A stretch of DNA of 64,000 nt from a virus: the IMG/VR virus record IMGVR_UViG_3300043179_000079, positions 1,138 to 65,137 of that record; one strand, given 5' to 3'. This document shows, piece by piece, positions 1,462-52,314 of this stretch (positions are counted from its first letter, which is position 1; every line of letters begins with the position of its first letter). The notes under the pieces were generated by a model, which made no database searches, was not told the origin of the DNA, and saw nothing but the letters and a program-made list of their open reading frames with translations. The position numbers and the translations under genes are program-made.

Positions 1462-2493
1462 ATGAGCCAGGAGCGCAGCGTCAGGGTGGTGCGGGTCGGC
1501 CCCGTGCACAGGCACGAGAACGCGGACACTCTGTCTATCACGCTCGTGGAGGGGGGCTACCCGGTGGTCTTCCGCACGGGCGAGTTCAACGAGGGCGACC
1601 TGGCCGCCTACGTCCCGGTGGACAGCGTGGTGCCGGACACCGAGCAGTGGGCCTTCCTCAAGGGCCACCGCCGCATCAGGGCGAAGAAGCTGCGCGGCAC
1701 CTTCAGCATGGGGATGCTGGCGCCCCTGCCCCACCGGGCTGGCCAGGACTGCGCGGAGGAGGCCGAGGCGGCCCACGTGTGCTTCGGGTACGACGAGGGG
1801 CAGGACATCACCGCGGCCATGGGCGTCGTGCCCTACGAGCCCCCCATGAAGTCCATGCTCGTCAACACCTACAACGAGCCCGACCCCGGCTTCCTGCCCC
1901 GGTACACCGACATCGAGGGCCTGCGCCGCTACCAGGACGTCCTGGTGCTGGGCGAGGAGGTGGTCATCACCGAGAAGATCCACGGCGCCAACATGCGCGT
2001 GGCGCAGCGCGACGGCCGGCTCTGGGTGGGGTCTCACAACTGCTTCAAGAAGCCGCCGGTCGAGGGCGGCCCGGTGGACATCTGGTGGCGAACGGCCAGG
2101 GAGATCGGGGTCGAGGGGCGCCTCGACGACGGGTACGCCCTGTACGGGGAGGTCTACGGCCGGGTGCAGGACCTGGGGTACGGGGTCGAGGAGCTGGCCT
2201 TCAGGGGCTTCGACGTCATGGACCTGTCCACGGGCCGGTACTTCGACTACCACGAGCAGACCGTCTGCCTGCAGAACCTGGGCGTGGAGGGCGCCCCCGT
2301 CCTCTACCGCGGGCCCTGGCTGGGCATGGAGGCCCACGCCGCCCTGGCCGAGGGCCCGAGCACGCTCTACCCCGGGCACGTCCGGGAGGGCTTCGTGGTG
2401 CGGCCCGTCAAGGAGCGCTACGACCACCGGGTCGGGAGAGTAATCTTGAAACTGCATGGGCAAAATTTTCTATTGCGAAAAGGGACCGAATGA
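1462..2493 (+). CDS. RNA ligase, Rnl2-like/DRB0094 family, with N-terminal OB-like domain
   Basis: Motif I EKIHGAN, motif III GEVYG, F..FDV, EGFVVRP, terminal LK; N-terminal H.NADTL. Confidence 0.9.
   Translation: MSQERSVRVVRVGPVHRHENADTLSITLVEGGYPVVFRTGEFNEGDLAAYVPVDSVVPDTEQWAFLKGHRRIRAKKLRGTFSMGMLAPLPHRAGQDCAEEAEAAHVCFGYDEGQDITAAMGVVPYEPPMKSMLVNTYNEPDPGFLPRYTDIEGLRRYQDVLVLGEEVVITEKIHGANMRVAQRDGRLWVGSHNCFKKPPVEGGPVDIWWRTAREIGVEGRLDDGYALYGEVYGRVQDLGYGVEELAFRGFDVMDLSTGRYFDYHEQTVCLQNLGVEGAPVLYRGPWLGMEAHAALAEGPSTLYPGHVREGFVVRPVKERYDHRVGRVILKLHGQNFLLRKGTE
2441..2447 (+). promoter_or_regulatory. candidate late-promoter box TAATCTT
   Basis: 8 nt upstream of HNH ATG 2456. Confidence 0.5.
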
Positions 2494-2965
2494 CCTATGG
2501 GAGTGCACTGTCTGCCACGAACAGAAGCCACTCGACGCCTTCTACTTGAACAAGAAGGGCAAGTACAAAGGCCATCGAACTTACGGGTCATGCAAACCCT
2601 GCATCGCCGAGAGGGTAAAGACCAACCCCAACAGACAGTTGTGGGCGAAACGTTACACAGAAACCCATCGAGAGGAGAATCGAGCAAGGAGTCGTGCACG
2701 GAATTTGCGTCTGCGCAATCAGATCCTGGACCACTACGGACGAAGATGTCGTTGCTGTGGAGAGACCGAGGAGGCCTTTCTAGCCCTCGACCACGTCAAC
2801 GGCGGGGGGAACAAGCACAGAAGAGAGATAAAGGGTGGACATTCCTCCGTGTACTACTGGGTCATCACCCACAATTTTCCGAAGGATTTTCAAATCTTGT
2901 GCCACAACTGTAACGTCGCTAAGGGTAATCGAGGCCTGTGTCCTCACCAGGGAAGGGTAGATTAG
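2456..2965 (+). CDS. HNH homing endonuclease
   Basis: N-terminal CxxC zinc fingers; CRCCG...LDHVNGGG...LCHNCN; AT-rich relative to flanks; overlaps ligase 3' end by 38 nt. Confidence 0.85.
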   Translation: MGKIFYCEKGPNDLWECTVCHEQKPLDAFYLNKKGKYKGHRTYGSCKPCIAERVKTNPNRQLWAKRYTETHREENRARSRARNLRLRNQILDHYGRRCRCCGETEEAFLALDHVNGGGNKHRREIKGGHSSVYYWVITHNFPKDFQILCHNCNVAKGNRGLCPHQGRVD

Positions 2966-2969
2966 ACGC

Positions 2970-3146
2970 ATGGCAATAAAGATGATAGTCCTCCTGCCCG
3001 GCGAAGGAGACCACCCCGGAGTAGGGGTCCGGCTACACGACCCGGGGTGGTACCACTACGACGAGACGTGGGGGTACGTGCACGGCCCGTTCGCCACCCC
3101 GGAGGCCGCCGAGGAGGCCTGCCGGCGGTACGCGGAGTCCCTATGA
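2970..3146 (+). CDS. small hypothetical protein (58 aa, not in ORF track)
   Basis: MAIKMIV...GWYHYDETWGYVHGPFATPEAAEEACRRYAESL*; ATGA overlap with next gene. Confidence 0.7.
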   Translation: MAIKMIVLLPGEGDHPGVGVRLHDPGWYHYDETWGYVHGPFATPEAAEEACRRYAESL

Positions 3147-19865: not shown

Positions 19866-19894
19866 CCGGATTGGTCTCCCCCGCTTCGGGCATG

Positions 19895-19901
19895 AAGATT
19901 G
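19895..19901 (-). promoter_or_regulatory. candidate late-promoter box CAATCTT
   Basis: 29 nt upstream of ATG 19865. Confidence 0.5.
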
Positions 19902-19971
19902 TCCGAGGGTTGACAACAAATCGGTCGGAAAAACTACACGATGGCGCGACGACCCTTACAAGACCGCGCGA

Positions 19972-19978
19972 CAATCTG
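19972..19978 (+). promoter_or_regulatory. candidate late-promoter box CAATCTG
   Basis: 6 nt before ATG 19985. Confidence 0.5.
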
Positions 19979-19984
19979 GAGGAC

Positions 19985-20728
19985 ATGATCGAACAGTTCC
20001 GCTGCACCCGCTGCCTCCAGACGAAGCCGAGGGCCGACTTTCATGAAAACCCCTCTAGCCGAGCAAGAAGGCCGGTGGTGTACGTTTGCAAGTCATGCCG
20101 CACAACCGTCCGGACCCAGAAAAGGCTGTACAAGTACGGGACCGTCTGCGTTACCTGCAACGAGCCTGGGCCGACGTACGACGACAAGTGCGGTAAATGC
20201 TTGAAGAGATGCGGGTTGAAATACTGTCGCTCCTGCAGGAGAGTCCAAAGCCGCACCGAGTTCTACCCCCACAGGGCCATATGTCTCTCCTGTGAGAAGT
20301 CCCTGGATAGACGCACCGAGACGTACATGGCCATCCTGGAGAAAAAACGAAAAAGGAAGGAAGAGGTCCGTCTTAAGCAGTGCGTCACGTGCAGAAAAAC
20401 CAAGCCGAAGGACGAGTTTTACCGAAGAGACGAGTGCACTACCTGCTCCGACGCGGTGTCTGACGAACAACACAGGGATCGATACCGAGGCTGGATGCTG
20501 CGCAAGCTGTACAACCTATCTCTCGACGACTACGAGCGGATGAAGCAAGAGCAGGGCGGGGTCTGCAAAATATGCAAGGGTTCCAGTTCGACGAAAGCCC
20601 TCGTGGTCGATCACTGCCATCTTTCCGGCAAGGTACGCGGGCTCCTGTGCCATAACTGCAACACAGGCCTGGGCATGTTCCGCGACAACCCCATGACGAT
20701 GAGGTCGGCAGCAGACTATCTGGGTTGA
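19985..20728 (+). CDS. endonuclease VII-type homing endonuclease with N-terminal zinc fingers
   Basis: QGGVCKIC...LVVDHCH.SGKVRGLLCHNCN.GLG.FRD; lower GC. Confidence 0.9.
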   Translation: MIEQFRCTRCLQTKPRADFHENPSSRARRPVVYVCKSCRTTVRTQKRLYKYGTVCVTCNEPGPTYDDKCGKCLKRCGLKYCRSCRRVQSRTEFYPHRAICLSCEKSLDRRTETYMAILEKKRKRKEEVRLKQCVTCRKTKPKDEFYRRDECTTCSDAVSDEQHRDRYRGWMLRKLYNLSLDDYERMKQEQGGVCKICKGSSSTKALVVDHCHLSGKVRGLLCHNCNTGLGMFRDNPMTMRSAADYLG

Positions 20729-21819: not shown

Positions 21820-22188
21820 GCCTACACCCCTTGAGAGACAAGAGACGCCTGGTCGCTGGTGACACAATGCGTCCGGGTTCACCTTCTCCGCCATCGCTCA
21901 TATTGGTCAGGCGCGCCCCCACATATCTCCAGTACGAAATCCAAAATCTCTCCGCCTCGGCGGTCTCGGCAGGAGAGGAGAAGCCTTCCTCCAAAACCTC
22001 CACCTCAGGCTTCGACCCCTGAACCAGCTATTTTTGTAGCTCTTCTTTCTAAGAGAATGTACGGAAAAATGGGCTGAGATCCTCTTCCATCCCTGACACG
22101 ACTTTCCAACGTAACGCATCTCTCACGTCCGTGGATCAATTAGGGCGTAAACGAAGAACTTAGATGATGTTTTTTGCGACAAGAGCAT
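21820..22188 (-). pseudogene. degraded GIY-YIG homing endonuclease
   Basis: MLLSQKTSSKFFVYALIDPRT*EMRYVGKS...(frameshift)...VLEE...AEAERFWI...LTNMSDGGEG; AT-rich. Confidence 0.8.
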
Positions 22189-23134
22189 CGGAAGCCAACC
22201 ACGCTTCGTCTTCGGGGGTAGAATCTGCCGATACAAAAGGCTCACCCGGAACACCAGGTCTAGCCACCCCTACCTGTGTCCCGACCGAGTACAGGCGCCC
22301 GGCCACCGCCTTCGGCCACACGCTCATCGCCGTCCCGGTCAGGTTCAGGTACCGGGCGTAGGCGACGTCGCTCTCCATGAGGTCCAGACGCTGGGCGGGG
22401 GCGCTGGAGACCTGGGAGGCCTGGAAGCCGCGCGCCTCCAGGAGGTCCTGGCGGCGGCGCATCAGGACGAACACCACGAGGCTGTGCAGGTAGGTCAGGT
22501 GGACCACCTCCCCGCCCACGAAGCACCCGATCTGGTAGGTCTCCCGGAACTGGGCCGACTCCAGGGCCGCCTGCCGGGAGGGCCGGGCGCCCCTGATGGT
22601 CGAGCCGCGCAGGTCCGCCACCGTGCCGGCGGCGATGGTGACGGTCTGCCCGTCCACCTCCAGGACCTCGTGCTGCCGCCCCTCTCGGTCAACCAGGACC
22701 ATGCCCGGCACCACCACCAGCGTGACCGAGGCAGGCAGGACGACCGCGCCGGTGGCCGGGTCGTAGGAGTCCGGGTCGAAGGGGCCGGCCAGGGCGGGCC
22801 ACTGGGTGTCGTCCGGCTCCGAGGTGTCGTGGTGGACGTCCCCGAGCGTGTTGGCGATCTCCACCGACTCCATCAGGCCGATGCTGACGCAGGGCAGGAC
22901 GGGGCCGGCGTACAGCGAGGTGGCCATGACCACCTTGATCTCGGTGCGCTGGAACCACTCCTTGGCCCGGTCGATCTCGCGCTGCCCGTAGCTGCCCTTG
23001 GTCAGCTCGTCCTCGCGGAGGCTGGCGAAGGCGTAGTCGAGCAGCCACGGCTCCCGGCGCAGCTCCCGCAGGCCCTCGACCAGGGCGCCGCGCACTACAA
23101 CATCACTCTGGAAGATCCCGGTAGCTTCCGCCAC
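22160..23134 (-). CDS. putative neck/tail-completion protein
   Basis: Position upstream of sheath; 324 aa; function by synteny only. Confidence 0.6.
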   Translation of the reverse strand: MAEATGIFQSDVVVRGALVEGLRELRREPWLLDYAFASLREDELTKGSYGQREIDRAKEWFQRTEIKVVMATSLYAGPVLPCVSIGLMESVEIANTLGDVHHDTSEPDDTQWPALAGPFDPDSYDPATGAVVLPASVTLVVVPGMVLVDREGRQHEVLEVDGQTVTIAAGTVADLRGSTIRGARPSRQAALESAQFRETYQIGCFVGGEVVHLTYLHSLVVFVLMRRRQDLLEARGFQASQVSSAPAQRLDLMESDVAYARYLNLTGTAMSVWPKAVAGRLYSVGTQVGVARPGVPGEPFVSADSTPEDEAWLASDALVAKNII

Positions 23135-31543: not shown

Positions 31544-33838
31544 CTATACTACCCTCGTGCTGGCGTACGGGTCAACGAACTTCTCTTCGGGGTCGGGGAG
31601 GGTGTCCGCCGGCCGGTCCTCCGGCTCGATCGGGGGGTCTACGTGGTCCTTCAGGAAGGAGTCCTCCCTGCCCCAGGAGGCGGCCCTGAGGAGGTGGTCG
31701 TACCTGGCGTTGAAGCCCCGGCGCACGTGCTCCCGCTCCCGCGGGTCCCTTATCATACCCAGCCTCGCCTCGAAGACCCTCTTGACCTCGGGGGCCGCCT
31801 TGGACCACCACGCCATGGTGCGCTTGACGTCTCCCGGGCCTCGCTCCTGGTCTTCCCCGGCCAGGGCGCTGTTCTGGTACTGGTCGTAGAGGCTCGTGTA
31901 CGTCCTCCAGTGTCTGCCTGTGCCGTAGTCGTAGCTCATCGCGTTGTCGATGGCGAGGGGGCGCCCCCTCGCCATCATGAGGTTGCCTGGGTGGCGGTCG
32001 GTGTTCTGGGACAGGAAGTCCATCACCGCGATCCTCCGTAGGTCCTCCCTGGCGGTGGCGGACACCCTGAAGCTCTGCTCGTGGTCGGCCTCCGGGTCCA
32101 GGTGCACGGCCAGCATGGGCACCGGGCCCGCGGATCCCCGGGCGAACACCACCGACACCTTCTGGTGCAGGCGGCCGATGCCGGCGGCGTGGTAGAGGGC
32201 CTGGTTGGTCATCTCGGACCACCCCAGCTTGGGGTGCCTCGTGCCGTACTGCCGGTGGTCCTCGTGGTACGGCTTGAGGAGGAAGGAGTGCTGGGCCCCC
32301 TTCATGACCACCTTAGGGGAGACCCCGGTGACGCCCTCGCTCCGATCCTCCACCGTGTTGTCCGGGTGCGCGAGGGAGGCCCGGAGGTCGTCGAACACGG
32401 CCCGGTGCTGCTTTCGCTCCCACGAGGGCTCGGCGTGGTGGTCGGTGGGAGGGGCCTGGGGGTCGTGCGGGTGCGTCTTCCCGTGCATGGCATCGACCTC
32501 GGGCGCGGGGACGGCCTTGGCCAGACCGACCCCCAGGCCCGTAGCCCACGCCCGGTTCACCGAGAAGTCCGCCAGCTCCGAGGACGCTGCCGCCTGCAGG
32601 GCCGACAGCCGGTCCAGGCTGGGCTGCGGGTCAACCCCGTACCGGGCGAGGGCGAGGGCCAGCCGCGCCCGGTCCACGGACCCCAGCCAGGACCTCAGGG
32701 ACCTCTCCCCGTCCACGGTGGCGCGCGGGAGCCCCGCCAGGCGCTCCCCGGGCGGCAGGCGCGCCCACCCCTCGGGCGCCCACACCCGCAGGTAGTAGGG
32801 GGTGAAGCTGTTGGGGTCGTTCGCCGGGTCGAACCCGCGGCCGGCCAGGGCCGACCCCTGGTCGATGAGCTGGACCGGGCGGTCCTCGGACGAGAGGACG
32901 TTCCGGCTGTGCCGGTCGGTCTGACCCAGGACCCAGTCCGCGGCCGCCAGCATGTGCAGGGTGCCGTCCCCGAGCAGGGGGAGCAGCGCCAGCCGCAGGC
33001 CGGCCTGGTCGTCGCGGAAGCGCCGGTACATGGGGGCGAACCCGGCCGCCTCGGAGAGCCACTCGACGGCGGCGTACTGCCGGCCGTCCACGAGGACCAG
33101 GTCCCCGCGCGGGGCGTAGGCGCCCAGGCCCATCCCGTCCAGAGCGTGCCAGAAGGCGGCCTCGCGCTGGCTCTGGGTGGCGGTCTCGTCACGCGCGCCG
33201 GCCGCCGGGGACTGGCGACCCGAGCCGGGCTTGAGCAGGAGGGCGCGGCCGGTCTCGGGGTCATCCGCCAGGACGGCGCCCGCGGCATGCTTGCCCCCCC
33301 TGAGGGAGACGGGGTGGGTGCGCCCCGCCTTGACGGCCCTGGCGATTGCCCCGGCCGCCTCGCGGGCCTCGGGCGCTCCGGGCGCCACCTGCGCCGACTC
33401 CTTGAGGCCCTCGGCCGAGTCGTCCACCACGGCCTCGCTCTTCCGGACGCCCTCGACCGCGGCCAGGCCGCGCAGGGCCAGCCGGTTCTCCTCGGTCGGC
33501 TCCAGCCCGGCGGCGGACAGGGCCGCCGCCTCGTCGTCGCCCTCGTGCAGGACGGCGTGCGGCCGGTGGCTCGGGTCGTCGTGCAGGCCGCCCTCCCGGA
33601 GGAGGCGCGCCGCCTCCATCAGGGAGTCCACCCCGAGGGACCCCCTCGGGAACTCGGGCTCCTCCTCGTGCCACGCGTCGAACATCTGGTGGTGGGCCAG
33701 GCGCTCCAGCAGGCTCTGCGCCGACGGCGGCGACGGGATGAACGCCCACGGGGCGCGGTCCTGCGCCCAGCGGAACAGGTCATCGTCGGTGGCCAGCTCG
33801 TGGCCCTCCCCGGTGTACAGGTTGGTGATGCGGTACAT
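31544..33838 (-). CDS. tandem HipA/PI3-4K-like kinase polyprotein
   Basis: Kinase 1: LLKP, REAA, DRHSRN, LIDQG; kinase 2: LLKPY, WSE, DRHPGN, AIDNA; linkers VRKSE and LAKAV. Confidence 0.8.
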   Translation of the reverse strand: MYRITNLYTGEGHELATDDDLFRWAQDRAPWAFIPSPPSAQSLLERLAHHQMFDAWHEEEPEFPRGSLGVDSLMEAARLLREGGLHDDPSHRPHAVLHEGDDEAAALSAAGLEPTEENRLALRGLAAVEGVRKSEAVVDDSAEGLKESAQVAPGAPEAREAAGAIARAVKAGRTHPVSLRGGKHAAGAVLADDPETGRALLLKPGSGRQSPAAGARDETATQSQREAAFWHALDGMGLGAYAPRGDLVLVDGRQYAAVEWLSEAAGFAPMYRRFRDDQAGLRLALLPLLGDGTLHMLAAADWVLGQTDRHSRNVLSSEDRPVQLIDQGSALAGRGFDPANDPNSFTPYYLRVWAPEGWARLPPGERLAGLPRATVDGERSLRSWLGSVDRARLALALARYGVDPQPSLDRLSALQAAASSELADFSVNRAWATGLGVGLAKAVPAPEVDAMHGKTHPHDPQAPPTDHHAEPSWERKQHRAVFDDLRASLAHPDNTVEDRSEGVTGVSPKVVMKGAQHSFLLKPYHEDHRQYGTRHPKLGWSEMTNQALYHAAGIGRLHQKVSVVFARGSAGPVPMLAVHLDPEADHEQSFRVSATAREDLRRIAVMDFLSQNTDRHPGNLMMARGRPLAIDNAMSYDYGTGRHWRTYTSLYDQYQNSALAGEDQERGPGDVKRTMAWWSKAAPEVKRVFEARLGMIRDPREREHVRRGFNARYDHLLRAASWGREDSFLKDHVDPPIEPEDRPADTLPDPEEKFVDPYASTRVV

Positions 33839-33841
33839 AGC

Positions 33842-34909
33842 TTAGGGGGCCCCCTTCGAGCGGTACATCGGGACGGACCCGTCGAACAGGTGCTGGCGCC
33901 CCTCGGCCGCCGCGTCCAGGAAGGCCGCCCGGCGGTTGAAGTTCTGGGAGACGTGGTCGCGCAGGCCGGGGTGCCGGATCAGGTCCAGCCTCCTGTCCAT
34001 GGCCGCCTTGACCGCGGGGGACGCGCCACGCCACCACGCCAGGGCAGGGCCGTACGCCGCAGCGCCAGCCTCCTCGCGCACCCGGACGTCGTCCATGCCC
34101 CAGTCAGCAGTGGGGCGCGGGATGGCGGGTACGAGGTTCTCCCAGGCCTGGTCCCGGTGGTAGGACAGCACCCCGTCGTCGCGGTTCATCCTCGCGACGT
34201 GGCGCGGGTGCCACTTGGGCGCCGCGTACTGGAAGGCCAGGGCGTGGTCGATGGCGAGGGGGCGCTGCTCGGGGTCGGGCCCCAGGAGTAGGTTGTCCCC
34301 GTGCCGGTTCGGCATCCCGGTCAGGAAGTCCATCAGGACCATCTTCCTGACGTGGTCGCCCATGGAGGACGGCCCGTCCCCCCTCGGGGAGACGCCCGTC
34401 TGCATGTCGCCCACGGAGGTGTGGCCGGGCGCCATGTGGACCACCACCAGGGGGTGCCGTCCGAACCCGTCGTCGTGGTGCACCACGTGGACGCGCTGGT
34501 GGAGGTCGCCGATGCCCCCGGCGTGGTACAGCGCCTGGCTGGTCATCTCGGACCAGCCCCCGATGGGGTGCCTCCCGTACCCCCGATGCAGGTCGCGCGG
34601 GATCCTCTCGAAGTAGGGCTTCACCAGGAAGCGGTCCCTGGCCCCGGCCTGCGCGGTCGAGGCGACCTCGAACACGGCCTTGTGGGAGCGGACCATGCCC
34701 ATGCCGCCCTGCCGGTGCTGGGGGGCGCCGCGGACGCTCCGGACCGGCCCCGGCCAGGACTGGACGCGCGAGAAGGCCTCCACGAGGTGGCCGTGGGCCG
34801 GCGGGTGGAGCCCCCGCTCCCGCTCGTGGTCCACCAGGGACGGGCCCTCCTTGGCCTGGGCCTCCATGACCCGGCCGACGCCCTCCAGGCGCTTGGCGAG
34901 GCTAGCCAC
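33842..34909 (-). CDS. HipA/PI3-4K-like kinase, probable pseudokinase
   Basis: LVKPY, GWSEMT.QALYHA.GIG.LHQ as in kinase 2; catalytic DRH is NRH (34301-34309). Confidence 0.75.
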   Translation of the reverse strand: MASLAKRLEGVGRVMEAQAKEGPSLVDHERERGLHPPAHGHLVEAFSRVQSWPGPVRSVRGAPQHRQGGMGMVRSHKAVFEVASTAQAGARDRFLVKPYFERIPRDLHRGYGRHPIGGWSEMTSQALYHAGGIGDLHQRVHVVHHDDGFGRHPLVVVHMAPGHTSVGDMQTGVSPRGDGPSSMGDHVRKMVLMDFLTGMPNRHGDNLLLGPDPEQRPLAIDHALAFQYAAPKWHPRHVARMNRDDGVLSYHRDQAWENLVPAIPRPTADWGMDDVRVREEAGAAAYGPALAWWRGASPAVKAAMDRRLDLIRHPGLRDHVSQNFNRRAAFLDAAAEGRQHLFDGSVPMYRSKGAP

Positions 34910-37496
34910 GGCGCCTCATGGGGTGCCTCGGGCCGACCGACGCCTCCTCCGAGGCCCGGGAGGAGTCGGGGGAGTGCTGGGCGGCCTCGCGGACGAGCCG
35001 CACGTGCTCCGGGCCGGCCTCCACGTGCCGCATCAGGGCCCCGACCTGGTGGGTGGGGTGGCGGCCGTCGCGGGTCAGGCGCGCGGCGGCGAGCAGGCGC
35101 AGCGTGTACGGGCTCCGGATGCGCGCCACGGCGGCCTGCGACACGGCCGGGTTGTCGTCCAGCGCGGCCCGCAGCAGGTCTCCCTCGCTCGGGTTGGGTG
35201 AGGCCAGCACCGCCAGCGCCCGCTCGTCGGGGTCGTGGTGGTCGAGGAGGGGGTCGGATTTCTGAAGACTTTTTCCTCCTCCTCTAGCAAATCTTTCCAC
35301 CTGTTCCTCCTCTTCTTCATCCGACAAACGAGGTATATTGTCACGATATCTGCGTTGTTCATGCCATGCGTGACCGATCTCATGTAGAATAGAGACCTCG
35401 ATCTCCCTTCTCATCTCTGGTTCGGTCACGTATCTGGCGTGTTCGGCAAGGGAAGGGGTGTGGAGGACGATATGAGGAGCGGCGTGCGTAAACCTGACGA
35501 AGGTGCTTACCGCGTTGTGGTTTTTTTCTGGCAGTTTGGTTGCGTAATGGATTGTGGGCTCGATCATCCCCAGCTTACGAAAGGTGTTTTTGTGGTCCTT
35601 TAGGACACGTTGCACCATGTCCACCATAGAAGGAGGCGGAGACGGGTCCTTTTGGTAGCCACGCATGACGGGGCGTCTTGCCATCTGGAGCCAGTGTTCT
35701 GGGTCGTATGTAGATTTCTCCAGGCACTCCTGCGACGCGAGGAGGTCGTCCTCGCTCTTCCCCACGGGGGCGGCGCCGACGTCCGCGGGCAGGAGCTGGT
35801 CGGCGTACGCCCGCACGTGGTGGTACGCGCGCTTCATGGCGTCATCGACCAGGCGGGCCCCCTGCTCGTCCCGCTCGTTGGCGGAGTGGTACCTCCGCCT
35901 GGTCTGCGGGTCGTTCACGTAGTTGTGCAGCAGCGCGACGCACTCCTCGTTGAAGGACCGGCCGTCGGGCTGGTAGCCGCGGTGCTCGGCGAACCTCTCG
36001 ACGTGGGACCTGAGGGCCTGAGGCAGAGAGCCGACGAGGCGCTCCGCCAGCCGCCAGCGCGCGGGCAGGCCGTGCCGGACCTCGACCTCCCGCATGGCGA
36101 GGTGGAAGTCCTCGTGCAGGGCCGTCGCCGCGGCCGAGTTGTGGTGCTGCGCGTCGTACGGCCTGGCCTCCCCGGCGAGCGCGAAGGCCGCCCTGGACCC
36201 CGGGACGCTGCTGGCGGTCCCCATGAGGCCCGGCCTGCTGCCGCTCTGGACGTCCACGGCGTCGCTGGCGCTCCTGGCCCGGACCGCGGACGCCCGGTCG
36301 GCGTTGTAGGCGTCCAGGTGGCGGGCGTGCGCCGCCCCTATCAGCCTCATCCGCAGACCGGCCTCCTGGGTGGTGGTCACGAAGGGCGTCTCCCGGCGCG
36401 GCTCGATGCCCAGGCCCTTGAACGCGATCTGGGGCTGGAACTTCTCCAGCGGGACCGACTTGAGGGTGTAGGAGTAGGGCGGATACACGGACCCCTGCTT
36501 CTCGCTGGGCGAGTAGGCTAGACCGTGCTTCCGCGCCAGGGCCTCGTGCACCCTCCTGGCCCCCTCGGTGTGGGTGCCGCCGGTCACCGAGTCCACTCCG
36601 AGCACGTGCTTGGCGTGGACGAGGGCGGCCTCGTACATGGCAGTCCCCAAACCCTTGCCTCGGAACGCCCTGGCGAGAGATGAGTGGATCTCGATCCCGG
36701 GCCGCCTTCCGGGACGCGGCTTCCACACCTCCAGCCTCCCCACCATGTCGCCGCGGTGGCGCAGGCGCACCTCGAAGATGCCGTGGTCGGGGTTGTCGAA
36801 CAGCTCCATGTCGGTATCGCCGCCACGGTGGGTCTCGGGGAGGAGGTGCCCGTAGTCGTAATACCAACTGCCGGCGCCCTTCTGCCTGCCCGTGGGCAGG
36901 TCCGCTATCGCCTTTCCGAGGGGCTGCGTCGATGACGCCCGGCGCACGTACTGGCGCACCACGTTATCCGGCCCCTCGGGGCCGTGCAGGTAGTCCCACA
37001 CCTCGGGGTCGAGCCCCTGGTGGACCGGGTGGAAGGTCCACTCGGCGGCCTCCCGGTCGGGGTCGAGCAGGCCGTGGGCCTGCCCCGAGACCAGGGCGGT
37101 GAACACGTGCAGCGTCTTGCCGTCCGGGGTCGTGCTCGTGCCCGCGGGCGTGACCGACATCGGGCGCAGGCCGGTCTCCTCGAACAGCTCGCGGCGCGCG
37201 GCCTCCTCGGGCAGCTCGCCCTCGTCCGCGTGCCCGCCCGGCAGGGACCAGCGGCCGTTGTCGTGCCGCCTCCCCAGCAGCAGGCGCCCGTGGGCGTCGT
37301 ACGCCATCACGAGGGCCACCTCCCGCGGCCCCTCGGACTTCTTGACGTCTCGGAATCCGGAGAAGTCGTCCCTGGCGACGAACCCGGCCTTCACCTCGTC
37401 GGCGTGGTCGTCGCAAGCCGGGACGTACGCCATGCCCTCGGCGTGGAGCACCTTCTTGGTGGCGTCCCTCTTGCACCTATCGCAGCGCTCGGCCAC
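34902..37496 (-). CDS. multi-effector polyprotein: Zn-finger, NUDIX, GNAT, zincin, zincin, helical repeat
   Basis: Nudix box GHADEGELPEEAARRELFEETGL; GNAT AFRGKGLGTAMY; LHEDFH and LHEIGH; linkers VKKS, LGKA, LEKF, VGKS, LEKS, LQKS. Confidence 0.85.
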   Translation of the reverse strand: MAERCDRCKRDATKKVLHAEGMAYVPACDDHADEVKAGFVARDDFSGFRDVKKSEGPREVALVMAYDAHGRLLLGRRHDNGRWSLPGGHADEGELPEEAARRELFEETGLRPMSVTPAGTSTTPDGKTLHVFTALVSGQAHGLLDPDREAAEWTFHPVHQGLDPEVWDYLHGPEGPDNVVRQYVRRASSTQPLGKAIADLPTGRQKGAGSWYYDYGHLLPETHRGGDTDMELFDNPDHGIFEVRLRHRGDMVGRLEVWKPRPGRRPGIEIHSSLARAFRGKGLGTAMYEAALVHAKHVLGVDSVTGGTHTEGARRVHEALARKHGLAYSPSEKQGSVYPPYSYTLKSVPLEKFQPQIAFKGLGIEPRRETPFVTTTQEAGLRMRLIGAAHARHLDAYNADRASAVRARSASDAVDVQSGSRPGLMGTASSVPGSRAAFALAGEARPYDAQHHNSAAATALHEDFHLAMREVEVRHGLPARWRLAERLVGSLPQALRSHVERFAEHRGYQPDGRSFNEECVALLHNYVNDPQTRRRYHSANERDEQGARLVDDAMKRAYHHVRAYADQLLPADVGAAPVGKSEDDLLASQECLEKSTYDPEHWLQMARRPVMRGYQKDPSPPPSMVDMVQRVLKDHKNTFRKLGMIEPTIHYATKLPEKNHNAVSTFVRFTHAAPHIVLHTPSLAEHARYVTEPEMRREIEVSILHEIGHAWHEQRRYRDNIPRLSDEEEEEQVERFARGGGKSLQKSDPLLDHHDPDERALAVLASPNPSEGDLLRAALDDNPAVSQAAVARIRSPYTLRLLAAARLTRDGRHPTHQVGALMRHVEAGPEHVRLVREAAQHSPDSSRASEEASVGPRHPMRRRG

Positions 37497-40082: not shown

Positions 40083-41489
40083 TTATGACGTGAGGTTATC
40101 GCAGATCACGTTCTTCCTGGGCTGCATGATGGCCAGCGTGGCGAACCGGAAGAAGGCCTCCGGGGACGCCAGCTCGGTCACCGCCAGCTTGAGGCGCGTG
40201 AAGGGCGCCAGCTCGCGCATCTCCATGGTGTTCCCCTGGACGAGGAACCCGGTGACGAACCCCGGGATCTTGTTGCCGAGGTCGTGGAAGACCGTGGTCG
40301 CCCCGGTCGAGGAGGCCACCCGGCCGATGTACTTGGCCGAGGCCTCGCTGCCGCCGGCCGCGCTGCGGTACACGTTGTGGTACCGGTGCGTGCCCGAGCC
40401 GTGCGTGATGGTGACGACGACCTCGTCGCCGTCCGCCACGATGGTCTCGGCCACCGCCGCCGACTTGCCCGACTCGCCCTTCTCGTTCGCCGAGGTGACG
40501 TAGTAGGTGTAGACCTCGTCCTTGAGGAACGGGGTCACGATGCCCGCGGTCGTGGTGCTGACCGCCGAGGTCAGCGTCGGGGTGCCCGGGCTGTTGCGGC
40601 GGATCGGGGCGGGGCCCGTCTTGCCGGAGAGGAAGCGGCTCTCCTCCAGCTTGACCGTGCCGCCCGAGACGAACTGGCGGCGGAGGTCCGCGCCGGTCGC
40701 GTCCTGGGGGGTGCCCGCCAGGATGATGCGCTCCTTGTCGAACGCGATCTTGTTGTAGGTCGCGTGGACGAGGGGGTCGATGAGGAGCAGGTCGGCCTTG
40801 CCGAAGTTCATGCGGCTGCGCACCGCGGCGTTCTCGATGATGGTCTGCGTCAGCGTTCCGCCGCCGCTCACGACCACCGAGGTGCCGCTGCCGTACTCGC
40901 CGAACATGAGGTCCTGCGCCTGACGCTGCGCGTCCGACTGCCGGACCTGGAGGTCCACGCCGTGCATGTTCGGGAGCTGCGGGACCGCCAGCGGGTTGCC
41001 GTCGAAGACGCCCCCGTTGGAGAAGTCCGCGAGCCCGCGGAACAGGTCGAACTCGATGTCGCCCGCGATCTTGAGGGCGGCCGAGGCGGCCTCCCGCTCG
41101 TCGCTCTTACGGCCGTCGCTCGTCTCGACCATGGTCGAGGCGATCGTCACCTTGCGGGTGTGGCTGTAGAAGCACATCGGGACGGTCACCCGGACGTAGT
41201 CCGAGATCTCCTCTTCGCCGACGTTGCCTTCGAGCTGGGCCGAGCCACCGAAGATGCCGTACGACAACTGGCGGTTGAACTGCCAGAGCGTAGACTTCGC
41301 GGGGCGCGAGTCCACCATCTTCTGCAGCACCATGTCCTTCTCCTCGAAGGTCACGTTCTGCATGACCGGCGACAGGTCCTCGACCTGCAGCGCGCTGCCC
41401 TGGGTCAGGTTGCCTGGGGCGGTCCCTGCGTAGGTACCGGCCTCCAGCGCCTTCACCAGGTCCTGGATGTTCTTGACGAGGTCGTTCAT
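40083..41489 (-). CDS. major capsid protein (Twort/SPO1-like HK97 fold)
   Basis: 468 aa; G.ALQVEDL...TF...PA.ST...F.R...G....EG; short propeptide ending LVK-A. Confidence 0.9.
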   Translation of the reverse strand: MNDLVKNIQDLVKALEAGTYAGTAPGNLTQGSALQVEDLSPVMQNVTFEEKDMVLQKMVDSRPAKSTLWQFNRQLSYGIFGGSAQLEGNVGEEEISDYVRVTVPMCFYSHTRKVTIASTMVETSDGRKSDEREAASAALKIAGDIEFDLFRGLADFSNGGVFDGNPLAVPQLPNMHGVDLQVRQSDAQRQAQDLMFGEYGSGTSVVVSGGGTLTQTIIENAAVRSRMNFGKADLLLIDPLVHATYNKIAFDKERIILAGTPQDATGADLRRQFVSGGTVKLEESRFLSGKTGPAPIRRNSPGTPTLTSAVSTTTAGIVTPFLKDEVYTYYVTSANEKGESGKSAAVAETIVADGDEVVVTITHGSGTHRYHNVYRSAAGGSEASAKYIGRVASSTGATTVFHDLGNKIPGFVTGFLVQGNTMEMRELAPFTRLKLAVTELASPEAFFRFATLAIMQPRKNVICDNLTS

Positions 41490-41526: not shown

Positions 41527-42396
41527 CTACGCCCCCGCGAGGAGGTGCTTGATCTGGGTCAGGTCCGCCTGCTTGAAGCAGTACCGGTTGATGAGGTCGC
41601 GGTCCGACTTGGACAGCTTCGGGTTCTTTGCCGCGTCGCGCAGGCGACGGGTGACCTCCTCCGGGCTCATGTCCTTGGTGGCGTCGGCCTCCGCGGCCGA
41701 CGGGGCGACGTCCGAGAGGGACGTGACCGCCTTGCGGAGCGGGCGCGCGAGCGCCTGCTCGACCGCCTTCACCAGGTGGCCGATGGCCTGCTGGCTGGCG
41801 GCGAGGTCCGCCTGGAGGGCGACCACCTCGGGCGCGGGCGCCGCGGCCGCGGGGGCCGCCTCGCTCTTGCCCATGGCGGGGGCCTCGGGAGGGGGGGCCG
41901 ACTCGGCCGCCGGGGCCTCTGGGGCCGGGGGCGGCATCTTCTCCGCCAGGACGTGCTTGATCGCCTGGTAGTGCGTCAGCAGGTCCGGCATCGAGAGCTT
42001 GCCGTACTCCTCGGCCAGCGCCATCGGGTCAACCGGGTCTCCCGACCCGTCGCCCTCCGCCGCCGGGTCCTGGGAGGGCTCGCCCTCCCCCTCTGCGGGC
42101 GGGGGCGCGCTGCCCTCGGGCGAGCCCGAGGCTGACGCGCTGCCCTCGGCCGGCGGGGAACCCTCGGGGGAGGGCGAGCCCTCCGCGGGGGACCCAGAAG
42201 CCGACGCCGACCCCTCTGCCGGGGGGGCCGAGGCCTCCGGGGCGGGGGGAGCGGTCGCCGACGCGTCGGGCGAGACCTCGGGGGAGGTCGCCTCGCCCGG
42301 GTGGGCCTTGGCCAGAGGGCTCGACTTCAGGAGCGCCGACACCTCGGCGTGCACCTGGTCGAGCATCTCTGCGATCTTGTCCTTCTCGTCAGCCAT
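41527..42396 (-). CDS. scaffolding protein
   Basis: Directly upstream of capsid; acidic, Pro/Ala/Ser low complexity; six K-S/A motifs (LLKS, LAKA, MGKS, LVKA, LRKA, LSKS). Confidence 0.75.
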   Translation of the reverse strand: MADEKDKIAEMLDQVHAEVSALLKSSPLAKAHPGEATSPEVSPDASATAPPAPEASAPPAEGSASASGSPAEGSPSPEGSPPAEGSASASGSPEGSAPPPAEGEGEPSQDPAAEGDGSGDPVDPMALAEEYGKLSMPDLLTHYQAIKHVLAEKMPPPAPEAPAAESAPPPEAPAMGKSEAAPAAAAPAPEVVALQADLAASQQAIGHLVKAVEQALARPLRKAVTSLSDVAPSAAEADATKDMSPEEVTRRLRDAAKNPKLSKSDRDLINRYCFKQADLTQIKHLLAGA

Positions 42397-48996: not shown

Positions 48997-51900
48997 TTAT
49001 GCCGCGGTCGGGGGGGCTGGCGCCGGGGGTGCCTCGTGGTGCAGGGCGATGGGGCCCTCCCGTCCGGGGACCGCCGAGTGGGCGAGCATCGGGGTCTGCC
49101 CCACCGCGTGGGCGCGCTGCCCGCCCGGGGTCAGCTTCTGCCTCTTGGCCTCGTACAGGGCGCGGTCGGCGTGCTCGGGGGAGTGGCCCAGGCCGATCGA
49201 CATCGACAGCTTGTGGGTCCCCCCGATCGGCGGCAGGGCGTCCATCTTGTCGCGGAGGGCGTGCACGAACCGGAGGGCGTGCTCGTAGGACGGCACGTGC
49301 GCCACGAACTCGTCCCCGCCGTTCCGGTAGAGGTCCTGGAGGTCCGGGTCCCGGAACAGCTTGCCGTGCCCCCGGCCGACCGACTCGTCCATGGCCTCCC
49401 GAGAGGCGCGCCCGAAGGCCTCGATGGCCTGGTCCCCGGCGTCGTGGCCGTGCTGGTTGTTGATGCTGGAGAAGTCGTTTCCGTCCATCGAGATGTAGAC
49501 GCCGGGCCTGCGGCGCGCCCGGAACTCGCTGAAGGCGTACTTGTTCCCGAGGCCGGGGGCCATCTTGTCCTCGTAGATGTGCCGCGTCAAGGCCCGCTCG
49601 ACGTCCGGGTGGACGTGGCCGGCCTGCACCGCCGCGCGGATGTGCTGCAGGGCGGTGTCCGGGCCCATCCTCTCCCCCTCCCCCTTGGACAGGCCGCGCG
49701 CCGGCCTAAGGGTGGCGGCGCCCGTCCGGGCGTTGCGCGCCATCAAGCGGACCAGGCTGGGGGGCACCGGCGACCCGTTCAGGTAGGCCGCGTCCCCGGA
49801 CACCTCCAGGGTGGCGGGGGCGGACATCCCGGCCCGCTGGTACTCGTACACCTCGACGCCGCCCTCGGCGGGCGCCTGGGCGCCCGCCGGTGCCGCCGGC
49901 TGCCGCGGCGCGTCCGCCCGCTCGCCGCCGGCCTCGACCTCGTCGCGCGGGTAGTCGTGGTCGTGCTGGACCCGCAGGTGGGGGCTCGCCTCCAGGCTGT
50001 GCATCATGGCCACCGCCCGCTCGTCCGCCGGCCCCTCGGGCAGGAGGCGCGACAGGACGCCGTGGTAGTCCTCCAGGTGGCGGACCGATCCGTCGTGGAC
50101 CATGTACCTCCCGACCCTGACGGCGCCGCCGTCGTGGAGGGCGTGCACCTCCCTGACGCTCGGCCCGCCGTGGTACAGCGCCTCCCCGGCCCCCTCCGAG
50201 GGCAGGGCCGCCAGGTGTGAGCGCAGCTCGGCCGTCAGGCGCTCCAGCCGGGGGGCCGAGCCGGCCATCATGGCGGTGGCCTGTCTCCCGGCGGTGCGCC
50301 TCTCCGCGTGGTCCAGCAGGCGGGGGGCCAGGAAGGCGTGGTACAGCATGGACGCCGGGACCTCCCCGAAGGCCTCCGCGTACCGGCGGTGCACCAGGGC
50401 GGTGCGCAGCGGCAGGTCCGAGTGGGCCTCCGGGACGGGCTCCCCCTTGGCCATGAAGGGGTCGATCGCCTCCCAGTAGGGGGCGTGGGTGGTCAGCTCG
50501 TTGGCCGCCAGGCCGCCTGGCATGTTGCGGAGGCGCTCGTGCGGGGCGATGGCCATCCAGTGCCGCCAGAAGGCGGGGAAGATGGCGTCCTCCCGGGTCG
50601 CGAAGTGCTTCCCCCATACCGGGTGCTCCACCATGTGCTGCACCGCCGGGTGGTTCTTGGAGTACCACCGGTCGATGGAGTCGAGCAGGTGGGTGTGCCG
50701 CGGGTCCCACAGCAGGTTCTTCACGTACTCGATGGTGTCCGAGTCCCGGCGGATACGGAGGCCGAACAGGTGGCGCAGGAAGTGGGTGTCCGGCACCGTG
50801 ACGTTGCCGCCGCCCATCATGCCCCAGGCGTAGCGCGAGGTCTTGGGGGCCAGGCCGTGCGGGTGGATGCCCTCGTACCGGCCCGGGTCCGGCTTGCCCT
50901 TGCCGGCAGCGACCTTGCGGCGCAGCTCGCTCCGGACGCTCTCGATCTTGTGCCGCATCAGCTCGCCGACCGCCGACCGGGCGTCGGCGCCGTGCCTGTT
51001 GGCCAGCTCGACCATCTGGTCGTGCATCTGGTGGTAGCGCAGGATGTTGACGCCCTTCTCTTTGGCCATGGCGTACCGCTGCAGGACGCCCGCCTGTGTG
51101 TGAGCGCCGGGGTTTGCAATAAAGTGCGACCGAGCGTGCTCGGGGTACTCGTCGGGCCGGTTGAGCTGCTTCCAGTGCTGGATGGCGGGCTCGAAGCCGG
51201 GCTTGCTGGGGTCGTGCCCGGTGTGGGCCATGGCGTCCACCAGCTTGGAGTACATCAGCTCCTGGATCGGGACCGGGGTGTTGGGGCTCAGCTCCGAGAA
51301 CAGGACGCTGTGCATCACGACCTCGGACGGCAGCCTCCTCTGCCTCAGGAGGTCGTGCGTCCGCACCCACCCGTGCATGGCGCGTCCGTGCGCTTCCTCG
51401 ATTTTCGGGTCGGACAGGATCTTCTTGAAGTGCTCGTCGGTGCCGTCGTGCGCCGGCAGGTAGAGGCGGAGGTCGCCCCGGGGCGTCCGCATGACCCCGG
51501 AGGTCTCGTCCACGAACGGGCGGGCCAGCTTGGGGTTCTCCTTGATCGGGGCCCCCTGCACGGTGAGGCCCGCGGGCTTGACCGACACCCCCGGCAGGGT
51601 CTGCTGGCGGGCCGCCTTGGGCTTCGCCTGCTCCCTGGCCGGCTTGGGCAGGGCCATGGGCCGACGAGCCTCCGTCTTCTTCTGGAGGGCGCCCCCCTGG
51701 ACCAGCGAGCCCGGGGACGAGGCCCCGTAGCCGGCCTCCAGGGCCTTGCTCAGCTCGGCGGGAAGCTCGGGGTCGGCCGACACCTCGACCGAGCCGGCCA
51801 GGCGGGAGGCCTCCCGCTTCTCCGTCCGCTTGCCGTCCTCGACCACCCCGCTCAGGCAGGTGCGGTTGGCCGGGCGCACGGTGGCGGCCACGGCCCGGGC

Positions 51901-52314
51901 TACCGTGGAGGTCAGGCGGTGCCCCCTTCGCTCCAGCGTAGACCCCTCGATGCTGTACCGCACCAAGATGGGCTCCTTGTTGGCCTGGCAGTCCCGGATG
52001 ATGGCCGCCAGGGCGCGGGCGCCCTCGTGGCCGCTGTCGTCGAAGAGGCGCGCCACGACGTAGATGTACGGCACCTTGACGCAGGACAGGTAGTACCTCT
52101 GCCGGTCGTTCTCGCAGTCCTCGGGCTTGTAAATCTTCTTGGCCGACACTATCTTGCCGACCACGTCGAGGGGGGTGGAGTCCTGGCCCGATCGATGCTC
52201 GAAGTTCAGGGTGGCCTTGCCCTCCTCCAGGTCCGAGATGTCGCAGCCCTCGACCTCCAGCACCTCGCCCGCCGTGTCGAGGGCCTCTGACGCGGCCACG
52301 CCATCGATGATCAT
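48997..52314 (-). CDS. prohead protease polyprotein: protease, HhH-GPD-like domain, unknown domain, GGDEF
   Basis: N-terminal IIDG.A.SE..D..GE...NFEH...YSIEG; GLAPKT...PDTHFLR; DGNDFSSINN.HGH..GD...GGDEF; linkers LSKA, MAKG, LSKG. Confidence 0.85.
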   Translation of the reverse strand: MIIDGVAASEALDTAGEVLEVEGCDISDLEEGKATLNFEHRSGQDSTPLDVVGKIVSAKKIYKPEDCENDRQRYYLSCVKVPYIYVVARLFDDSGHEGARALAAIIRDCQANKEPILVRYSIEGSTLERRGHRLTSTVARAVAATVRPANRTCLSGVVEDGKRTEKREASRLAGSVEVSADPELPAELSKALEAGYGASSPGSLVQGGALQKKTEARRPMALPKPAREQAKPKAARQQTLPGVSVKPAGLTVQGAPIKENPKLARPFVDETSGVMRTPRGDLRLYLPAHDGTDEHFKKILSDPKIEEAHGRAMHGWVRTHDLLRQRRLPSEVVMHSVLFSELSPNTPVPIQELMYSKLVDAMAHTGHDPSKPGFEPAIQHWKQLNRPDEYPEHARSHFIANPGAHTQAGVLQRYAMAKEKGVNILRYHQMHDQMVELANRHGADARSAVGELMRHKIESVRSELRRKVAAGKGKPDPGRYEGIHPHGLAPKTSRYAWGMMGGGNVTVPDTHFLRHLFGLRIRRDSDTIEYVKNLLWDPRHTHLLDSIDRWYSKNHPAVQHMVEHPVWGKHFATREDAIFPAFWRHWMAIAPHERLRNMPGGLAANELTTHAPYWEAIDPFMAKGEPVPEAHSDLPLRTALVHRRYAEAFGEVPASMLYHAFLAPRLLDHAERRTAGRQATAMMAGSAPRLERLTAELRSHLAALPSEGAGEALYHGGPSVREVHALHDGGAVRVGRYMVHDGSVRHLEDYHGVLSRLLPEGPADERAVAMMHSLEASPHLRVQHDHDYPRDEVEAGGERADAPRQPAAPAGAQAPAEGGVEVYEYQRAGMSAPATLEVSGDAAYLNGSPVPPSLVRLMARNARTGAATLRPARGLSKGEGERMGPDTALQHIRAAVQAGHVHPDVERALTRHIYEDKMAPGLGNKYAFSEFRARRRPGVYISMDGNDFSSINNQHGHDAGDQAIEAFGRASREAMDESVGRGHGKLFRDPDLQDLYRNGGDEFVAHVPSYEHALRFVHALRDKMDALPPIGGTHKLSMSIGLGHSPEHADRALYEAKRQKLTPGGQRAHAVGQTPMLAHSAVPGREGPIALHHEAPPAPAPPTAA

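Follow-up and report, generated by a model that had tools for sequence, protein, structure and literature searches.

A foreign zincin cassette at a Lys/Ser bond in the polyvalent protein gene of an uncultured Mx1-like phage

Polyvalent proteins are phage-encoded chains that carry unrelated catalytic domains in one polypeptide, and zincin-like metallopeptidases are the commonest domain of the class (Iyer, Burroughs, Anand, de Souza and Aravind 2017, J Bacteriol, PMC5512222). Extensive domain mosaicism is known among these proteins (PMC5512222). They are thought to be one of the main routes by which phages deliver counter-defence enzymes at infection. The assembly and renewal of their domain sets has so far been described from static comparisons, and the gene reported here is a dated, base-resolved example. 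It lies in 64,000 nucleotides of viral DNA (positions 1,138 to 65,137 of the IMG/VR virus record IMGVR_UViG_3300043179_000079), referred to below as the window. The gene, at 34902..37496 on the minus strand (as are all features of this gene given below), encodes an 864-amino-acid protein whose second zincin domain is encoded by an inserted block of low guanine-plus-cytosine (GC) content. The best explanation overall, which is considered probable, is that this domain is a foreign cassette placed at a K/S bond of a polyvalent chain (the slash marks the bond that follows Lys), with the linkers of the chain serving as head-protease sites. If so, a free-standing gene has become one module, with the joint on a bond that appears to separate modules, and domain shuffling has been caught in the act.

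By the definition of Iyer et al. (2017), the 864-amino-acid protein belongs to the phage polyvalent proteins. Unrelated catalytic domains are found in one chain: Nudix, GNAT and two HExxH domains. The gene is phage-encoded, as seen from the IMG/VR record, from the head, portal, terminase and sheath genes alongside it, and from synteny with Myxococcus phage Mx1. Hallmark domains of the class are present (the zincin here, and PF18760 ART-PolyVal in the Mx1 orthologue), and the relatives have mosaic architectures. In its chain of Nudix, GNAT and zincin domains, in being phage-encoded and mosaic, and in the ART-PolyVal of its Mx1 orthologue, the protein is like those described by Iyer et al. (PMC5512222). 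It differs from them in a recurrent h-x-K/(S,A) linker, which is also found in the capsid protein, the scaffold-position gene and the protease. It also differs in that one module keeps its donor codon usage, which dates and maps one shuffling event. What is new is that this single event is visible in base composition and can be mapped to a single peptide bond.

The source record is 67.7 kb long with a GC content of ~70% and an estimated completeness of 41%. Genes for terminase, portal, major head protein, tail sheath and related proteins are found in the window. The gene order in the window is that of Mx1 (169.6 kb), namely major capsid, a few small genes, a 281-amino-acid gene, a large 'NUDIX hydrolase' and a kinase. 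The source virus is a large uncultured phage related to Mx1, and the 864-amino-acid gene is syntenic with the gene of the Mx1 1479-amino-acid 'NUDIX hydrolase', the protein that bears PF18760.

Other relevant systems are the head proteins processed by prohead proteases. The T4 internal and phiKZ inner-body proteins are cut by the prohead protease after Glu, at a shared motif, before delivery. In HK97, the gp4 protease is the prohead protease and gp5 is cleaved between Lys103 and Ser104, which is a precedent for a prohead protease acting at Lys/Ser. In SPN3US, the prohead protease cut follows Glu and removes N-terminal propeptides (PMC10052503). The polyvalent gene resembles those of the T4 internal, phiKZ inner-body and SPN3US ejection proteins (Viruses 2023, PMC10052503) in its location among head genes and in a motif shared with capsid and scaffold. 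It differs from all three in the proposed cut, which would come after Lys and take a multi-enzyme chain apart at each of its domain boundaries. It differs from HK97 in that the protease domain found here has no Pfam S78 match and has T4 gp21 as its best structural match.

Composition and placement of the cassette

The composition of the gene changes abruptly over the inserted domain. In 150-nucleotide windows, GC is 0.75-0.81 at 34700-35250, 0.47-0.58 at 35200-35750, and then 0.69-0.75. A two-breakpoint maximum-likelihood fit to third-position GC (GC3) identifies codons 594-746 as the low block, with GC3 of 0.54 inside and 0.96 outside. The log-likelihood gain of this fit is 78.8, compared with a maximum of 10.2 in 100 codon permutations. 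By 2-log-unit support intervals, the low block begins at codon 591-594 and ends at codon 744-749, and a fit to all bases places the breakpoints at window positions 35719 and 35258. GC at the three codon positions is 0.59/0.39/0.54 in the cassette and 0.73/0.50/0.96 in the remainder of the gene. Since the first and second positions are also lowered, the amino-acid make-up shifts as well. All 19 Lys codons outside the cassette are AAG, whereas six of the nine inside are AAA, including those of K594 and K746. The cassette is the only internal in-frame low-GC block of such size among the 35 genes of the window; the remaining low-GC islands are intergenic or at gene ends, and no further in-frame cassette was found.

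A first-pass annotation, made by a model from the sequence alone, had placed the fall in GC at ...CLEK-S (35712-35717) and its recovery at ...SLQK-S (35256-35261), and these positions are exact. The left junction, where GC3 drops, is K594/S595 (AAA TCT, 35712..35717), and the right junction, where it returns, is K746/S747 (AAA TCC, 35256..35261). The fitted breakpoints fall on K594 and K746, and sliding-window GC agrees, so that the composition breaks coincide with the two motifs. Between them, S595-K746 (35259..35714) forms a cassette of 152 codons. It is identified by its composition, by an AlphaFold2 model and by full-length alignment to free-standing proteins of 150-180 residues as a complete minimal zincin domain.

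The other parts of the chain are as follows. The N-terminus is Zn-ribbon-like and rich in Cys and His. It is followed by the Nudix domain (residues 58-161, 37014..37325; Pfam PF00293, 75 bits, E 7e-21) and by the GNAT module (residues 196-346, 36459..36911), which lies between LGK/A and TLK/S. The latter matches Pfam Acetyltransf_3 and Acetyltransf_1 (GNAT E 1.6e-7, ~residues 232-318). Next is the native zincin 1 module (residues 353-580, 35757..36440), which has the motif HEDFH and a GC3 of ~1.0 per 20 codons. A native double-Lys linker, K580/SED...LEK594/ (residues 581-594, 35715..35756), follows zincin 1 and leads to the cassette. The chain ends in the native helical C-terminal domain (residues 747-864, 34905..35258).

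Five related proteins were recovered (P numbers denote proteins, with P0001 being the 864-amino-acid window protein, and L numbers denote their contigs). They are the Mx1 orthologue WNM70333 (1479 amino acids; Mx1 is L002), P0004 (1218 amino acids, syntenic, on L003), P0005 (652 amino acids, on a 171-kb contig), P0006 (1439 amino acids) and P0018 (997 amino acids, on L015). Word-index searches for relatives of the 864-amino-acid protein gave P0004, P0005, P0006 and P0018 only. No closer whole-protein orthologue was found by blastn against phages or by scans of IMG/VR with the protein and two module alignments. The GNAT module of the window is 36-39% identical to the GNAT modules of P0004, and zincin 1 is 35-37% identical to the modules of P0004 and P0018. 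The helical domain is 51% identical to P0018 residues 399-496 and 38% identical to the P0004 C-terminus.

Module order is permuted across P0001, Mx1, P0004, P0005, P0006, P0018 and P0019, while the linkers are constant (e.g., LK/SEPLxK/AIADLP, K/AEP and K/SED). The window protein has the order Zn-ribbon, Nudix, GNAT, zincin 1, HEIGH zincin, helical domain. P0004 has a Nudix, zincin 1, the helical domain and four GNATs, three of them ahead of the Nudix and one after zincin 1. P0018 has Nudix, an unknown domain, the helical domain, zincin 1 and another domain. The Mx1 protein (L002:5617-10056), which is annotated only as 'NUDIX hydrolase', has GNAT, an unknown domain, ART-PolyVal, Nudix and a ParB-like C-terminus. 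P0006 has a sub-threshold ParB_N match (17 bits, cut-off 26.3). Another arrangement is seen in L015:1-6017, where two consecutive polyvalent genes overlap by 28 nucleotides. They encode P0019 (at least 1016 amino acids, with ParB-like DGHHR motifs) and P0018, and both contain K/AE and K/SE linkers. Comparison of these architectures shows the modules to move as units delimited by h-x-K/(S,A) linkers.

The position of the insertion can be read from the same alignments. The zincin 1 tail ends in a Lys that is invariant in all three proteins with this module: LEK594/S in the window, LDK/A in P0018 and MGK/S in P0004. On the other side, the helical domain starts as LAK/SD-LLDHHDP in P0018 and as LQK746/SDPLLDHHDP in the window, where S747-D-P-LLDHHD aligns with the P0018 sequence. 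Because K594 is the conserved tail Lys and S747 is the native first residue of the helical domain, the insertion sits on the K/S bond. Without the cassette, the sequence would read K/SED...LEK/SDPLLDHHD, an ordinary double-Lys linker as in P0018. The first-pass annotation had suggested that related phages be examined for absence or replacement of the cassette at the same junctions. Both are seen, and in P0004 the slot between zincin 1 and the helical domain is occupied by a GNAT module. The exact placement of the cassette at K/S boundaries is well supported.

Fold, family and origin of the zincin domain

The cassette was modeled with AlphaFold2 as residues 590-750 using the family alignment (predicted local distance difference test, pLDDT, 85.5; predicted template modeling score, pTM, 0.80). 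The model has a zincin-type helix, a three-strand sheet, a long helix with the HExxH motif and then another that bears the Glu residues, and its low-confidence parts are the two ends, 590-598 and 739-750. The predicted order of an N-terminal helix, a three-strand sheet and two C-terminal helices, with HExxH on one helix and a Glu on the next, is that of zincins. The metal-binding and catalytic motif HEIGH (residues 705-709, 35370..35384) is in the long helix (103-130 of the model). E730...E734 (35295..35309), which correspond to the invariant E141 and E145 of alignment A1, are in the following helix (137-149 of the model) and include the candidate third zinc ligand. H705, E706, H709, E730 and E734 are invariant in the family. 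As the first-pass annotation had proposed, the ~150 AT-rich codons encode one complete HEIGH zincin-like domain, given the model, its disordered ends and the full-length free-standing homologues.

A HMMER search of 1.84 billion representative proteins gave 11 non-self matches at E <= 0.001. In 10 of them the match is a protein of 150-179 amino acids, or the domain is N-terminal, with 28-36% identity; the eleventh (P0013) matches over a short stretch only. The alignment spans the homologues from residue 3-5 ('DYDPEW') to within ~10 residues of their C-termini. Three homologue contigs were examined, in which the genes are found in tight small-gene arrays beside endolysin-like and helicase genes at a GC of 56-63%. 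These contigs are phage-like DNA. Fold searches gave weak matches (template modeling, TM, scores of 0.4-0.55), the informative ones of which are all zincins: SprT/Wss1-type 6mdw, Zincin_1 3e11 and 2ejq, selecase, abylysin, M48 and IrrE-like models. Among the named Pfam zincin families (Peptidase_M78, Zincin_1, SprT-like and DUF4344), the cassette stays below every threshold, with 17 bits for M78 (cut-off 22) and 15 for Zincin_1 (cut-off 22.4), and an NCBIfam search gave no match. Since the informative fold matches are all zincins and no Pfam or NCBIfam model reaches threshold, the cassette is assigned on these comparisons to a small unnamed family within the zincin superfamily, normally found as a free-standing phage gene. 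It is like the minimal zincins (SprT/Wss1/SPRTN, Zincin_1 PF06262, the selecase and abylysin minigluzincins, and IrrE/ImmA M78) in its long HExxH helix, its Glu on the next helix, its three-strand sheet and its length of 130-150 residues. It differs from them in sequence scores under the Pfam cut-offs and in weak TM scores, as a separate small family of mostly free-standing phage genes. This family is now defined and can be tested as an effector.

The cassette is absent from the relatives. The family profile, which detects the window copy at E 1e-46, gives no match in Mx1, whose genome is complete, or in two further relatives, 96% and 100% complete, that were reached via head-protease genes. 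No match was found by tblastn of the cassette against 50,697 phage records, and pattern scans of IMG/VR and Joint Genome Institute (JGI) metagenome contigs gave no cassette relative. A profile scan of IMG/VR gave three distant matches of 24% identity, and the HMMER search described above gave nothing nearer than proteins of 28-40% identity, most of them free-standing. The Mx1 polyvalent gene has GC1/2/3 of 0.60/0.43/0.59, near the 0.59/0.39/0.54 of the cassette, which makes a lower-GC member of the same phage group a plausible donor. That the cassette is foreign to the lineage, little ameliorated and horizontally acquired is well supported. The proposal of a recently acquired module joined in frame was borne out by its differing composition, by its absence from Mx1 and two near-complete relatives, and by its full-length homology to free-standing proteins. 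Other kinds of insertion were considered and rejected. The insert ends in L-Q-K instead of His-Asn and has a zincin fold instead of a splicing or endonuclease domain, unlike an intein or homing insertion, and a transposon was rejected as well.

Linkers and the head protease

In the proposed mechanism, the gene at 34902-37496, among the head genes of an Mx1-like myxophage, would encode a chain of independent enzymes on short disordered h-x-Lys/(Ser,Ala) linkers. One link of the chain, S595-K746, would be a small zincin metalloprotease domain acquired horizontally from a donor genome of ~55% GC, perhaps a lower-GC relative, recently enough for donor codon usage to remain visible. The captured piece would span nearly all of the coding sequence of a free-standing gene ~150 codons long, and its in-frame joining at the K/S bond between the zincin 1 tail and the helical domain would have left a Lys/Ser junction on both sides. 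The polyvalent protein may be packaged in the virion and delivered with the DNA, which is favoured only by the position of its gene among head genes. The packaged polyprotein would then be cut by the head-maturation protease into separate enzymes. The new zincin would be set free as one of the delivered effectors, and as a protease it would probably attack a host or defence protein.

The distribution of the linker motif is relevant to cleavage. All five [LVM]xK[SAG] motifs of P0001 are between domains, and each boundary has at least one pair of Lys and a small residue. Across 38 window proteins, 49 such motifs are observed against 26 expected (p = 2e-5). The excess is strongest in the scaffold-position gene (41527..42396, minus strand), followed by P0001 (5 vs 1.4). 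The scaffold-position gene is just upstream of the capsid gene and encodes 289 amino acids with six motifs against 0.8 expected (p = 8e-5). It has no family match, and judging from its position and motifs its product is likely a scaffold that is cut to pieces.

The capsid protein and the protease have a related motif. The gene for the major capsid protein (40083-41489; PHROG 752, major head protein) encodes DLVK13/A14LEAG near its N-terminus (41448..41453, minus strand). The window, Mx1 and L003 all have this L-x-K/A-x-EAG sequence in their major capsid proteins (residues 11-18). The head-protease polyprotein (gene 48997-52314, 1105 amino acids), whose Mx1 counterpart is annotated as a putative prohead protease, has ELSK190/A191LEAG (51742..51747, minus strand) directly after its N-terminal protease domain. 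Mx1 has K/AMEAG at this point, as in its own capsid protein. The same K/A-x-EAG in the capsid and after the protease domain is the pattern expected if the protease cleaves a single type of site both in its own chain and in the capsid protein.

The similarity between the two proteins extends further. A capsid N-terminal segment, K/ALEAG...P..L.QG.AL, is copied after the protease domain (51742-51762 and 41433-41453, both minus strand). The Mx1 version is K/AMEAGNFNA.PSTL (L010:13002-16721, residue 242; L002:916-2316), and the relatives L016 and L017 have K/SIEAG and K/TLTAG versions. From its recurrence, the K/A-x-EAG segment may be a shared cleavage or docking signal.

His40 and Ser121 of the head-protease N-terminal domain are invariant in nine relatives. 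In language-model comparisons, its neighbours are prohead proteases of families S77, S78 and S80. The folds closest to its model (pLDDT 65) are those of T4 gp21 (E 0.027) and the herpesvirus proteases, and these matches are weak. Taken together, this circumstantial evidence leans towards the h-x-K/(S,A) linkers being sites of the head-maturation protease. The link of module boundaries to a motif of the capsid protein, scaffold-position gene and protease is new, and points to the head protease rather than the zincins as the processing enzyme. If the Lys/Ser bonds are head-protease sites, the polyvalent proteins of this phage group are processed by the capsid maturation protease and not by their own zincins. 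Note that such cuts, if made after Lys, would be invisible to ordinary trypsin-based virion proteomics.

Alternative explanations and module exchange

A cassette of foreign origin does not by itself require cleavage. The K-S motifs may be flexible linkers only, with the acquired cassette in a chain that works uncut and with junctions in linkers since joints elsewhere would destroy domains. The nearest fold match of the protease cuts after Glu, and the breakpoints of P0018, P0019 and the Mx1 3' end are off the linkers, both of which suit an uncut chain. So does the delivery of N4 vRNAP and ArdC uncut (Iyer et al. 2017, PMC5512222). Against this are the junctions at the K/S bond itself and not just anywhere in a 14-residue linker, the enrichment of the motif in the scaffold-position gene, K/A-x-EAG in the capsid protein and protease of two phages, and a motif at every P0001 boundary. 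An uncut chain is rated unlikely, though it is the most serious of the alternatives. Less likely still is autoprocessing, in which zincin domains of the protein itself would cut the linkers, and the new zincin would be a second such enzyme or a replacement. Processing by zincin-like domains has been proposed for polyvalent proteins (Iyer et al. 2017, PMC5512222), and the motifs of both HExxH domains are intact in this protein. However, the linker motif is the same in Mx1, P0005 and P0006, for which Pfam scans, and in the case of Mx1 the cassette-profile search too, gave no zincin. The motif is also present in the capsid protein, the scaffold-position gene and the protease itself, and the cassette homologues are free-standing, with nothing to autoprocess.

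Two further alternatives concern the origin of the low GC, and both are far less probable than autoprocessing. The domain could be native and old, with GC lowered by local selection for slow translation or for a hidden DNA or RNA element. The failure to find a donor would fit this, but GC1, GC2 and amino-acid make-up shift along with GC3, the transitions are abrupt, within a few codons, and lie at the edges of modules, and none of the relatives examined has the domain, three complete or near-complete genomes among them. These facts make native origin highly improbable. Alternatively, reads of a lower-GC organism could have been joined in a metagenome assembly chimera, since the record is a metagenome-assembled fragment and 41% complete. 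The insert keeps the reading frame over exactly 152 codons with no stop, and encodes a complete fold between the host protein's own linker motifs. An identical 864-amino-acid protein with the same neighbours is present on a separately assembled Logan contig (run SRR12687952). Given this contig, the exact frame and the complete fold, an assembly chimera is very unlikely, the least likely explanation of all.

Several points weigh against the preferred explanation, a foreign cassette at the K/S bond of a chain with head-protease linkers. No donor or close cassette relative was found, the best match being 36% identical, and for want of a donor it is composition that makes the acquisition 'recent'. 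A cassette of this kind occurs once in the window. The compositional breakpoints of P0018, P0019 and the 3' end of the Mx1 segment are off the linkers, and selection for intact domains alone would leave junctions in linkers without any special role of the motif. The K-x-L-x-(K or R) at the end of the cassette may belong to the free-standing family itself, and the right-hand site could then be partly fortuitous. As for the protease, its domain has no Pfam match even at E 10 (S78 included), no PDB match and no NCBIfam match. T4 gp21 cuts after Glu, not Lys.

Whether the motif acts as a standard for exchange is a separate question. The first-pass annotation had proposed that it is a plug-in standard letting the phage swap payload enzymes. 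Linker-delimited modules are permuted, and a GNAT occupies the same slot in P0004, which agrees with this proposal; it is plausible and partly supported, with the motif itself a candidate driver of the exchange. P0004 has a second compositional cassette, GNAT residues 142-295 (L003:8424-8885), with GC3 of 0.66 vs 0.88, extending from linker to linker. Its edges are 2-4 codons from the linker lysines, and the gain is 22.5 compared with at most 12.9 in permutations. In the Mx1 gene, a lower-GC3 segment (0.47 vs 0.67) starts exactly at LDK315/V. Linker DNA is repeated in the P0004 gene (20 of 21 nucleotides identical between two linkers) and could guide recombination there; no long linker repeats are found in the window polyvalent gene. 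The cassette ends resemble the natural termini of the free-standing family, which has 'M-K-x-x-D-P...' starts and K-x-L-x-(K or R) ends. From this resemblance, capture of a whole free-standing gene appears no less likely than exchange of a module that already had linkers at both ends. It is a tentative and rather doubtful idea that the h-x-K/(S,A) head-protease site doubles as a universal module boundary and recombination point, where any free-standing gene joined in frame would become a packaged and released effector, with the present capture just past. Such phages would then have a cassette system for enzymes delivered from the capsid.

The likeness to polymorphic toxins, also drawn in the first-pass annotation, holds loosely. 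In both, a short conserved motif marks the point at which unrelated domains are exchanged. In contrast to polymorphic toxins, exchange here can be anywhere along the chain, the modules varying over its entire length, and there is no N-terminal secretion domain, repeat stalk or immunity gene, the neighbours being kinase-like and structural. A trafficking domain, repeats, a variable tip and an adjacent immunity gene, which characterize polymorphic toxins, are not the features of the 864-amino-acid protein.

The heptamer AGAAATC occurs only twice in the 64-kb window, both strands considered, as direct repeats at the two junctions (35257-35263 and 35713-35719, minus strand). Slippage between these copies would excise the cassette precisely and in frame. 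The repeat was not counted as an independent sign of target duplication. Both copies encode (E or Q)-K-S in donor-type codons, which largely explains their identity.

Some minor observations concern neighbouring genes. A PI3/PI4-kinase-like gene follows the polyvalent gene in the window (31544-34909, minus strand), in L003 (11645-12649) and in L015 (6175-7293), and the gene at this place in Mx1 is annotated simply as 'kinase'. PI3/PI4-kinase-like genes look like a conserved partner of the polyvalent protein. Elsewhere in the window, two GC-rich genes have AT-rich 3' ends: the last 40 codons of 22160-23134 (22160-22279, minus strand) have a GC3 of 0.42, and the last 19 codons of 1453-2493 (2437-2493, plus strand) have a GC3 of 0.37. 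These tails may be replaced C-termini, or may be runs into AT-rich intergenic islands (2375-3073, 19892-20665 and 21852-22312).

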